Positions 8,367 through 8,666 of a stretch of DNA of 64,000 bases are shown one piece after another. Below the pieces are notes generated by a model. That model worked only from the letters and a program-made list of their open reading frames with translations, was not told the DNA's origin and made no database searches. Position 1 is the stretch's first letter. Each line of letters opens with the position of its first letter. Both the position numbers and the translations under genes were made by a program. The DNA is from Escherichia coli (GTDB lineage Bacteria > Pseudomonadota > Gammaproteobacteria > Enterobacterales > Enterobacteriaceae): NCBI RefSeq assembly GCF_024223415.1, contig NZ_CP100503.1; one strand, given 5' to 3'.

Positions 8367-8383
8367 ATTGCTCTAATAATTCC
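8367..8383 (+). promoter_or_regulatory. C1-operator-like motif ATTGCTCTAATAATTCC
   Basis: Match to the P1 C1 operator consensus ATTGCTCTAATAAATTT as I recall it; inverted partner at about 8416-8432. Confidence 0.45.
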
Positions 8384-8391
8384 ATATTTTT

Positions 8392-8419
8392 AAAACGTGA
8401 TGTACACTCATCACGTTTT
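8392..8419. terminator. Hairpin AAAACGTGATG-loop-CATCACGTTTT flanked by A-run and T-run (bidirectional terminator candidate)
   Basis: 11-bp perfect stem, 6-nt loop, T-run after; lies just downstream of 7664..8365. Confidence 0.55.
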
Positions 8420-8666
8420 TTATTAGAGCAATCCAAAAGGTGCACTATGTGGCCATTCCGACGGAAATATCACTACTGGCTGATCGCCTTTGTTACGCCG
8501 ACCGGCGGTATCAGGCATGTCATCACCAAGTATCGCAACAAGAGACTCACCTTAGCCAGAATTTTACAGGCTGCCATAGGTGAGGGACTGGATACAAATT
8601 GCGTAGTCCTTCCTCCTTCATACTTAGGAAAAATGACCGAAGCACAAGCTAATACGGAACTTTGAA

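Follow-up and report, generated by a model that had tools for sequence, protein, structure and literature searches.

The 66-bp element at positions 8367 to 8432 is best explained as a control region lying between two operons that C1 represses, with three functions packed into its length: a pair of C1 operators, an intrinsic terminator that works on one strand, and a promoter for the downstream operon whose -10 hexamer is the loop of the terminator hairpin. As a whole, we hold this explanation to be reasonably probable. The window, meaning the entire 64,000-nucleotide stretch of Escherichia coli DNA that we analyzed, is a P1/P7-type phage-plasmid carrying c1 and coi, and the 1.6 kb around the element is 99.0 to 99.6% identical to P1, P7, SJ46, RCS47, and others. 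The genes and signals that frame the element are as follows.

7664-8365, plus strand: pmgQ/hdmD coding sequence (open reading frame list; pmgQ in P1, hdmD in P7; PHROG glycosyltransferase)
8363-8365, plus strand: pmgQ stop codon TAA, 2 nt ahead of the element; pmgQ is the last gene of the C1-controlled pmgN-pmgQ operon
8437-8442, plus strand: Shine-Dalgarno-like AAGGTG, 4 nt ahead of the pmgR ATG (read from the sequence)
8447-8665, plus strand: pmgR/shtA coding sequence (open reading frame list; P1 and P7 records; PMC9024508)
8667-9929, plus strand: pmgS/shtB, 420 aa; follows pmgR in the controlled operon (open reading frame list; P1 record)
9949-9977, plus strand: canonical terminator after pmgS (promoter/terminator scan)
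23837-24688, minus strand: c1 repressor gene
24799-25008, minus strand: coi

The intergenic span from the pmgQ/hdmD stop (8365) to the pmgR/shtA ATG (8447) measures 81 bp, of which the element takes up 66. Every gene flanking the element is on the plus strand, including pmgR, pmgS, and pap. A mechanical open reading frame of 70 aa on the minus strand (8233-8445) overlaps the whole element, and the P1 and P7 records annotate nothing there. Pfam returned no informative domain in PmgQ, PmgR, C1, or Coi, and for PmgS only a sub-threshold TPR-like match; Rfam covariance models gave no match at E ≤ 1 across 7900-8900.

At 8367-8432, a repeat finder reports one perfect inverted repeat nested inside another. 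The outer arms (8367-8379 and 8420-8432) are 13 nt each, 100% complementary, and 40 nt apart, and the inner arms (8392-8402 and 8409-8419) are 11 nt each, also 100% complementary, and enclose a 6-nt loop. Read in order, the element is ATTGCTCTAATAA-TTCCATATTTTT-AAAACGTGATG-TACACT-CATCACGTTTT-TTATTAGAGCAAT. Folded as plus-strand RNA, positions 8355-8445 reach -26.9 kcal/mol compared with -9.0 ± 2.3 kcal/mol for shuffled sequences (z = -7.9; 0 of 200 shuffles as good), and as minus-strand RNA the same positions reach -27.9 kcal/mol (z = -6.2). A dyad of ≈66 bp had been described here in the initial annotation, and that description is borne out: both nested repeats are exact, their letters agree with those given before, and the arrangement lies far beyond chance.

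Judged from their sequence, the outer arms are C1 operators. Operators for C1 are asymmetric, 17 bp long, and have the consensus ATTGCTCTAATAAATTT; P1 has 22 of them (PMC8546580). The two sites in the element lie in opposite orientations.

8367-8383, plus strand: Op86a (OpmgRa in P1, Op(sht[a]) in P7), ATTGCTCTAATAATTCC; 13 of 13 core positions and 14 of 17 consensus positions; annotated ortholog
8416-8432, minus strand: Op86b (OpmgRb in P1, Op(sht[b]) in P7), ATTGCTCTAATAAAAAA; 13 of 13 core positions and 14 of 17 consensus positions; annotated ortholog

The 13-mer ATTGCTCTAATAA, with up to two mismatches allowed, occurs 17 times in the window where 1.9 ± 1.2 copies are expected, an enrichment of ≈9-fold that is reached in 0 of 100 shuffles. 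Seven of the copies are exact, and two of these seven are the arms of the element; nowhere else in the window do two operators converge within 150 bp. The 32 bp from 8384 to 8415 separate Op86a from Op86b, for a center-to-center distance of 49 bp.

This operator pair around the hairpin is already known, the outer arms being the site named Op86a/b in P1. On the orthologous bases, the P1 GenBank record AF234172 lists OpmgRa (formerly Op86a) as "monovalent" with the remark "controls expression of pmgR and pmgS," and OpmgRb (formerly Op86b), also as "monovalent"; the P7 record AF503408 names the two arms Op(sht[a]) and Op(sht[b]), and both records annotate both arms as protein_bind features for "phage repressor C1." Neither of these two GenBank records annotates a terminator here. 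The arms had been proposed to be half-copies of the C1 operator in opposite orientations. Their orthology to annotated C1 sites, one on the plus and one on the minus strand, upholds the identity and the orientation; "half-copies" has to be dropped, because the 13 bp of each arm are the conserved core of an asymmetric operator that is present in full, at 17 bp. The bivalent C1 operators of P1 consist of two overlapping 17-bp sites that make up an incomplete palindrome. We rejected a bivalent operator as a description of this element because its two sites, 32 bp apart, do not overlap; the records, moreover, call each one "monovalent."

We compared the locus with its relatives. Phage and plasmid collections contain hundreds of near-identical copies. 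Diverged copies were found in a Salmonella plasmid and in Cronobacter phage JK004, at ≈68% DNA identity or 69% PmgS identity, and further diverged ones on contigs of PmgS homologues with 52 to 71% identity. A scan of viral contigs for the exact-arm pattern recovered 115 loci, every one of them this same locus; a relaxed pattern returned mostly chance matches plus two real ones (L170 and L180), and a scan of genome contigs by PmgS alignment returned just two near-identical Escherichia loci, which added no diversity. Down to 52% PmgS identity, every relative examined has the same architecture between its pmgQ and pmgR homologues, and the element is 66 bp long in all clades, with a length of 67 in two single contigs only. 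At 27% PmgS identity, locus L128 has a dyad of another kind in this place (AAGATACTAATTTAT, 17 nt, ATAAATTAGTATCTT); its motif has no second copy within the 8.3 kb of sequence examined, which gives no support for calling it an operator. Compensatory change does not preserve the outer helix: L122 and L124 have A-C and A-G mismatches in it, and its terminal pair varies.

The inner repeat forms a hairpin with a G/C core at 8396-8415 (7 bp, four of them G-C pairs, and a 6-nt loop; -8.5 kcal/mol), which the adjoining A/U pairs extend to an 11-bp stem of -12.9 kcal/mol.

8392-8419, plus strand: hairpin AAAACGTGATG-TACACT-CATCACGTTTT (inverted repeat, fold, covariation)
8416-8421, plus strand: run of six T directly 3' of the G/C core, the putative terminator U-tract; on the other strand it is the A-rich tail of Op86b

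Between clades, the core stem changes in both of its sides:

P1: 5' side CGTGATG, 3' side CATCACG
D6-like: 5' side CATGGTG, 3' side CACCATG
JK004: 5' side GCATGGTG, 3' side CGCCATGT
L133: 5' side GCGTGGTG, 3' side CACCATGC
L122/L124: 5' side GGTGTGGTG, 3' side CGCCACATC

L127 has a different, re-registered stem (CGGCATG/CATGCCG) that still ends at the T-run. In a gap-free alignment of 19 distinct hairpins with 11 stem pairs, five of the 11 pairs are changed on both sides, from G:C to A:U or from A:U to G:C, and none of 500 shuffles reaches the covariation score. The strands differ in how well they tolerate the substitutions. Across the 19 hairpins, 94.7% of cells are paired on the plus strand versus 86.6% on the minus strand, and a standard pair survives a one-sided change in 22 cells on the plus strand (all but one of them G-U) versus five on the minus strand; the minus strand has fewer pairs because the G-U pairs of the plus strand read as C-A there. 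The plus-strand fold is also the more stable one in L129, L133, L135, JK004, L122, L124, and L127, for example -14.0 versus -5.8 kcal/mol in JK004, -16.3 versus -7.7 kcal/mol in L122, and -16.4 versus -10.8 kcal/mol in L133. The P1 hairpin is a perfect palindrome between AAAA and TTTT, with -13.4 kcal/mol on both strands, and the D6-type L130 is likewise a perfect palindrome that folds equally on both. Within the P1 clade, a stem pair is disrupted in several single-contig variants, in three cases by C-A on the plus strand; these we treated as unfixed polymorphism or sequencing error. From the pattern of substitutions we infer that the hairpin matters as RNA, in plus-strand transcripts running from pmgQ into pmgR.

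The plus strand has the sequence features of an intrinsic terminator, namely a G/C core, a U-run, a position after a stop codon, and a compensated stem. The hairpin begins 27 nt past the pmgQ stop, and in this window its core is followed by TTTTTTAT, with seven T in the next 8 nt. In six of the eight sequence types compared, six to seven of the 8 nt past the core are T; in L122 and L124 the core is followed only by ATCTTGAT (AUCUUGAUUAG), and four T in 8 nt make a poor U-tract. A promoter/terminator scan of the region called neither the hairpin nor any promoter. The scanner probably missed the hairpin because its maximal stem takes in the A/T tracts, leaving four T; when the core stem is judged by hand, the scanner's own rules class it as a terminator. 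We infer that the hairpin and T-run form the plus-strand intrinsic terminator, or at least a 3'-end hairpin, of the pmgN-pmgQ operon. Given the poor U-tract of L122 and L124, the conserved function may be the 3' hairpin rather than efficient termination.

On the minus strand, only the P1 and D6 types have a T-run after the stem; JK004, L127, L133, L170, and L122/L124 lack it, reading CTTCAAAAAA or similar instead. Because of this restricted distribution, and because no gene to the right is read toward the element, the terminator would be one-directional. The center of the element had been put forward as a bidirectional terminator: the terminator-like character stands for the plus strand, where both hairpin and T-run are conserved, and we rejected the bidirectional form because on the minus strand the T-run is not conserved and fewer of the observed substitutions are tolerated.

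Published RNA-seq data from P1vir infection agree with a boundary at this position. Given as voom/limma log fold changes relative to time 0 without length normalization (PMC8201110, Table S1), the 10-min values are 7.39 for pmgO, 6.99 for pmgP, 6.95 for ppp, and 7.05 for pmgQ, followed by 9.02 for pmgR and 9.99 for pmgS. At 30 min, the corresponding values are 11.66 for pmgQ, 10.81 for pmgR, and 11.70 for pmgS, a gene 1.8 times longer than pmgQ (PMC8201110). The pattern in a dksA host is similar (PMC8201110). The step between pmgQ and pmgR at 10 min, together with the differing kinetics, points to an independent, early-active promoter between the two genes; the step fits a separate early pmgR promoter. 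That pmgS equals pmgQ at 30 min despite its greater length is compatible with partial termination; the density over pmgR, which in this data set exceeds that over pmgQ at all times, tells against it.

Two arrangements of that promoter can be drawn within the element. The coordinates of the annotated one were carried over from AF234172 (locus + 5099).

8368-8373 and 8391-8396, plus strand: sigma-70 promoter PpmgR as predicted in AF234172, with -35 TTGCTC (inside OpmgRa) and -10 TAAAAC
8380-8386, plus strand: candidate -35 of a promoter using the loop, here TTCCAT/TCCATA, abutting Op86a (weight scan, nine regions)
8403-8408, plus strand: hairpin loop TACACT, candidate -10; T1, A2, and T6 invariant in all clades
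8415, plus strand: G, predicted start if the loop is the -10, 7 nt past the loop hexamer; a purine in all relatives

Scoring sigma-70 candidates with a crude position-weight matrix over nine homologous intergenic regions, we found that the best or joint-best candidate has its -10 in the loop in all nine. By clade, the loop hexamer is TACACT, TATCAT, or TATTAT, and neither the clades nor ≈115 contigs vary at its positions 1, 2, and 6. In a -10 hexamer, these three are the positions that count most. The candidate -35 reads TTTACT or TTTAAT in relatives and, with a 16-bp spacer, TTGATT in L122 and L124, where the candidate scores 9.2. In P1 both arrangements are weak on this crude matrix, at 5.6 for the loop promoter (TTCCAT/TACACT) and 4.4 for the annotated one. 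Most likely, then, the pmgR promoter uses the loop TACACT as its -10 and ≈8380-8386 as its -35, and starts near G8415, a placement drawn from base conservation. With the loop as -10, the start would fall near G8415, Op86a at ≈-48 to -32, and Op86b at ≈+2 to +18; transcripts from such a promoter would not contain the hairpin and so would not be terminated by it.

A late promoter of P1 was also considered and rejected. The Lpa-dependent class is defined by a conserved 9-bp box at -22 upstream of the -10. By eye, neither -10 is preceded by a -22 box like that of LPmat (AAGTGACTT), and P1 has no late promoter annotated here.

An alternative is that PpmgR is right as GenBank has it. Transcription would then start at ≈8403, inside the loop, with Op86a blocking the -35 and Op86b standing as a roadblock at ≈+13 to +29, and the hairpin would either still end upstream transcripts or be incidental. 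The prediction is in the P1 record itself, the same TTGCTC and TAAAAC with their 17-bp spacer are present in the D6-like locus L136, and an operator-embedded -35 is annotated at other P1 operators, such as P2pmgT at Op88. Its -10, however, is not conserved: it is lost in JK004 and L133 (TGAAGC), in L127 (TGCGGC), and in L122/L124 (TAAAGG/TTAAGG), where pmgR and both operators are kept. Even among P1-type contigs, three have TGAAAC, in which the critical second base is gone, and six have TAAAGC (five of the L107 type and L044). The annotated promoter ranks first in no relative, and we consider it unlikely to be the one in use. Less likely still is that the hairpin acts in RNA processing or stability, either as a protective 3' hairpin or, with the arms paired as well, as an imperfect RNase III duplex of ≈24 bp, with the stabilities of the pmgQ and pmgR-pmgS messages uncoupled in either case. 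Such a role would account for plus strand-specific covariation that persists even in L122 and L124 with their poor U-tract, and the 66-nt RNA does have a two-helix fold at -26.9 kcal/mol. Yet the six to seven U right after the core in six of eight types are the signature of intrinsic termination, and the outer helix is uncompensated, its complementarity being explained by the two operators.

To two further readings we give very little credence each. One is the model of the initial annotation, a bidirectional terminator whose action is modulated by flanking C1, possibly through looping. The perfect, equally stable P1 palindrome between AAAA and TTTT invites it, and C1-mediated looping has reportedly been seen at the c1 operators of P1. 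It is opposed by the all-plus gene order to the right, by the clades in which the minus-strand T-run is missing, and by the tolerance of G-U on the plus strand only; in addition, 49 bp from center to center would be short for a protein-mediated loop, and C1 at Op86a would be expected to stall polymerase before the hairpin had been transcribed. The other has the inner palindrome work as DNA, as the site of a dimeric protein or as a cruciform that presents the -10 single-stranded. The palindrome is perfect in P1 and in D6-type phages, and a -10-like loop sits at the dyad center. A compensated stem that otherwise changes freely argues against both a sequence-specific DNA site and a cruciform: the register shift in L127 is a poor fit to the former, and G-T on one strand is C-A on the other, which would destabilize the latter.

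Under the favored reading, in which operators, one-strand terminator, and loop promoter coexist, the element could work as follows. In the lysogen, C1 on Op86a and Op86b, assigned by orthology to annotated operators, would shut RNA polymerase out of the pmgR-pmgS promoter between them, and C1 at Op86a would also be expected to stall polymerase leaking in from upstream, ahead of the hairpin. Inactivation of C1 would let both the upstream operon, with its own operator (Oppp/Op83), and the pmgR promoter fire. The hairpin and U-run would then end most pmgN-pmgQ transcripts, as the covariation and RNA-seq data suggest, splitting that operon from pmgR-pmgS, so that pmgR-pmgS levels would be set by their own promoter. 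Initiation at that promoter, near G8415 and past the hairpin, would let its transcripts escape termination, and Op86a and Op86b would bracket the polymerase footprint. Coupling of C1 binding or looping to termination, which had been suggested for this dyad, is neither required nor supported by any evidence. None is needed because polymerase arriving from pmgQ would meet C1 at Op86a before it reached the hairpin, and a simpler account of the two sites is that they flank the pmgR promoter.

In its strictest form, the arrangement would be a fully interleaved terminator-promoter-operator module, in which the same 28 bp serve as an RNA hairpin and as DNA with a -10 in the loop. We advance this form tentatively, its chances being somewhat less than even. 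If it is true, initiation takes place at the terminator's own U-tract and thereby bypasses the terminator, and one C1 monomer on each flank closes the unit in the lysogen; the annotated PpmgR would be misplaced by ≈12 bp, and an unannotated terminator would end the pmgN-pmgQ operon.

For the annotation of P1, the analysis offers two small refinements: a putative plus-strand terminator hairpin backed by covariation, which would mark where one C1-controlled operon ends and the next begins, and a better conserved placement of the pmgR promoter. The understanding of repression or termination is unchanged by either, the element being ordinary and largely explained. The product of pmgR is essential for making infectious P1 particles (PMC9024508), and P1-type phage-plasmids carry resistance genes and are in wide use as tools; accurate operon boundaries should therefore help in engineering them and in interpreting polarity in CRISPRi experiments.

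The closest comparisons are with P1 and P7 themselves. Their OpmgRa/OpmgRb and Op(sht[a])/Op(sht[b]) are the same locus at 99.0 to 99.4% identity over 1.6 kb; between pmgQ/hdmD and pmgR/shtA, both have the two 17-bp sites, oriented as they are here. The element is identical; the records differ from the present reading in having no terminator and in placing the -10 at TAAAAC instead of in the loop.

As a putative terminator, the hairpin resembles the intrinsic terminators of enterobacteria and phages, such as the one after pmgS (9949-9977), which likewise combine a stem-loop having a G/C core with an immediate U-run. It is also like them in lying on the coding strand just past a stop codon and in having a stem kept by compensatory change. 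At -8.5 to -12.9 kcal/mol, its stem is weaker than that of the pmgS terminator (-17.6 kcal/mol). Unlike ordinary intrinsic terminators, it has a U-tract that is at the same time the tail of a repressor site and a promoter that is apparently interleaved with it, and one clade has no good U-tract.

As an operator arrangement, the element is like the bivalent C1 operators of P1 in having a pair of oppositely oriented C1 sites at a single promoter; there the sites overlap, and here they do not. At Op88/OpmgT (P1pmgT, P2pmgT) and at Oref/Omat, a 17-bp operator of this asymmetric type overlaps a sigma-70 promoter or lies right beside it, and at Op88 the annotated P1pmgT -35 (TTGATT) directly follows the operator, which is the geometry proposed here for the promoter with its -10 in the loop. 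Those loci have one "monovalent" operator per promoter, whereas in the pmgQ-pmgR interval two convergent sites bracket both the putative promoter and the hairpin.

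Beyond the Op86a/Op86b element, the window has the following further features:
5650-5666, − strand: Oppp, formerly Op83 in the P1 annotation, TATGTACTAATTAATTT
8233-8445, − strand: mechanical ORF of 70 aa with a GTG start
9949-9977, + strand: intrinsic terminator of textbook form, with an 11-bp stem (−17.6 kcal/mol) and 7 T
10508-10524, + strand: operator Op88/OpmgT
10557-10579, − strand: hairpin resembling a terminator, ACATGCCGCGCCTTGCGGCATGT with TTTTATTTT after it
10761-13877, − strand: type I restriction enzyme HsdR-like ORF of 1038 aa
25248-25264 (− strand) and 25331-25347 (+ strand): two C1 operator matches in divergent orientation, at a distance of 83 bp

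According to the P1 annotation, Oppp/Op83 controls the upstream pmgN-pmgQ operon. In the window, this site is a poor operator match compared with the perfect cores found in both Op86a and Op86b, and it was not picked up by a 13-mer search allowing two mismatches. The divergent pair lies upstream of coi and c1 and presumably corresponds to the immunity region's Op99-type sites.

Two contigs carrying relatives of the locus differ in their operator arms. In L133 (3199-3264), the same change, TTGCTC to TTGTTC (GAACAA in the mirror orientation), is present in both arms; in L170 (− strand, from position 192), it occurs in the left arm only. The window itself contains one site of the TTGTTC type, at 45802-45818. 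Such arms could mean that variation in the operator is tolerated, or that the specificity of C1 has shifted. A more distant relative, the metagenome contig L128, encodes a PmgS homologue with 27% identity and carries a different perfect dyad at the same intergenic position (3204-3250; AAGATACTAATTTAT, 17 nt, ATAAATTAGTATCTT). Upstream of this dyad, TTTACA makes a good −35, and the sequence between its arms includes GATATT, which resembles a −10. No further copy of the dyad motif was found in the 8.3 kb of L128 sequence covered. The dyad may be an equivalent two-site operator for a diverged repressor.

The antisense 70-aa ORF covers the Op86a/Op86b element in full and also the end of pmgQ; P1 and P7 carry no annotation for it, and nothing points to gene status. 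The terminator directly 3′ of pmgS is likewise unannotated in the P1 and P7 records, which therefore seem to carry no terminator features in this region. Going rightward from Op88/OpmgT, the − strand hairpin is reached after ≈35 bp; it is flanked by pap and the hsdR end.

Downstream of pap and Op88, the HsdR-like ORF occupies the place of pmgT in P1. Phages phi456 and vB_EcoM-673R5 share the surrounding cassette (10500-14000) at ≈96% identity, but P1 and P7 do not. Homology of this junction to DNA that follows the EcoDXXI and R124 hsd loci is noted in the P1 record itself.

The P1 genes downstream of Op86 and Op88 include some labeled “putative morphogenetic.” In P1vir RNA-seq (P1 NC_005856; PMC8201110 Table S1), pmgR, pmgS, pap, pmgT, and pmgU reach high levels as early as 10 min, with log fold changes versus time 0, without length normalization, of 8.4 to 10.0, while pmgN-pmgQ are at ≈5.4 to 7.4. 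The genes so labeled that follow Op86 and Op88 thus show early-gene behavior in P1.
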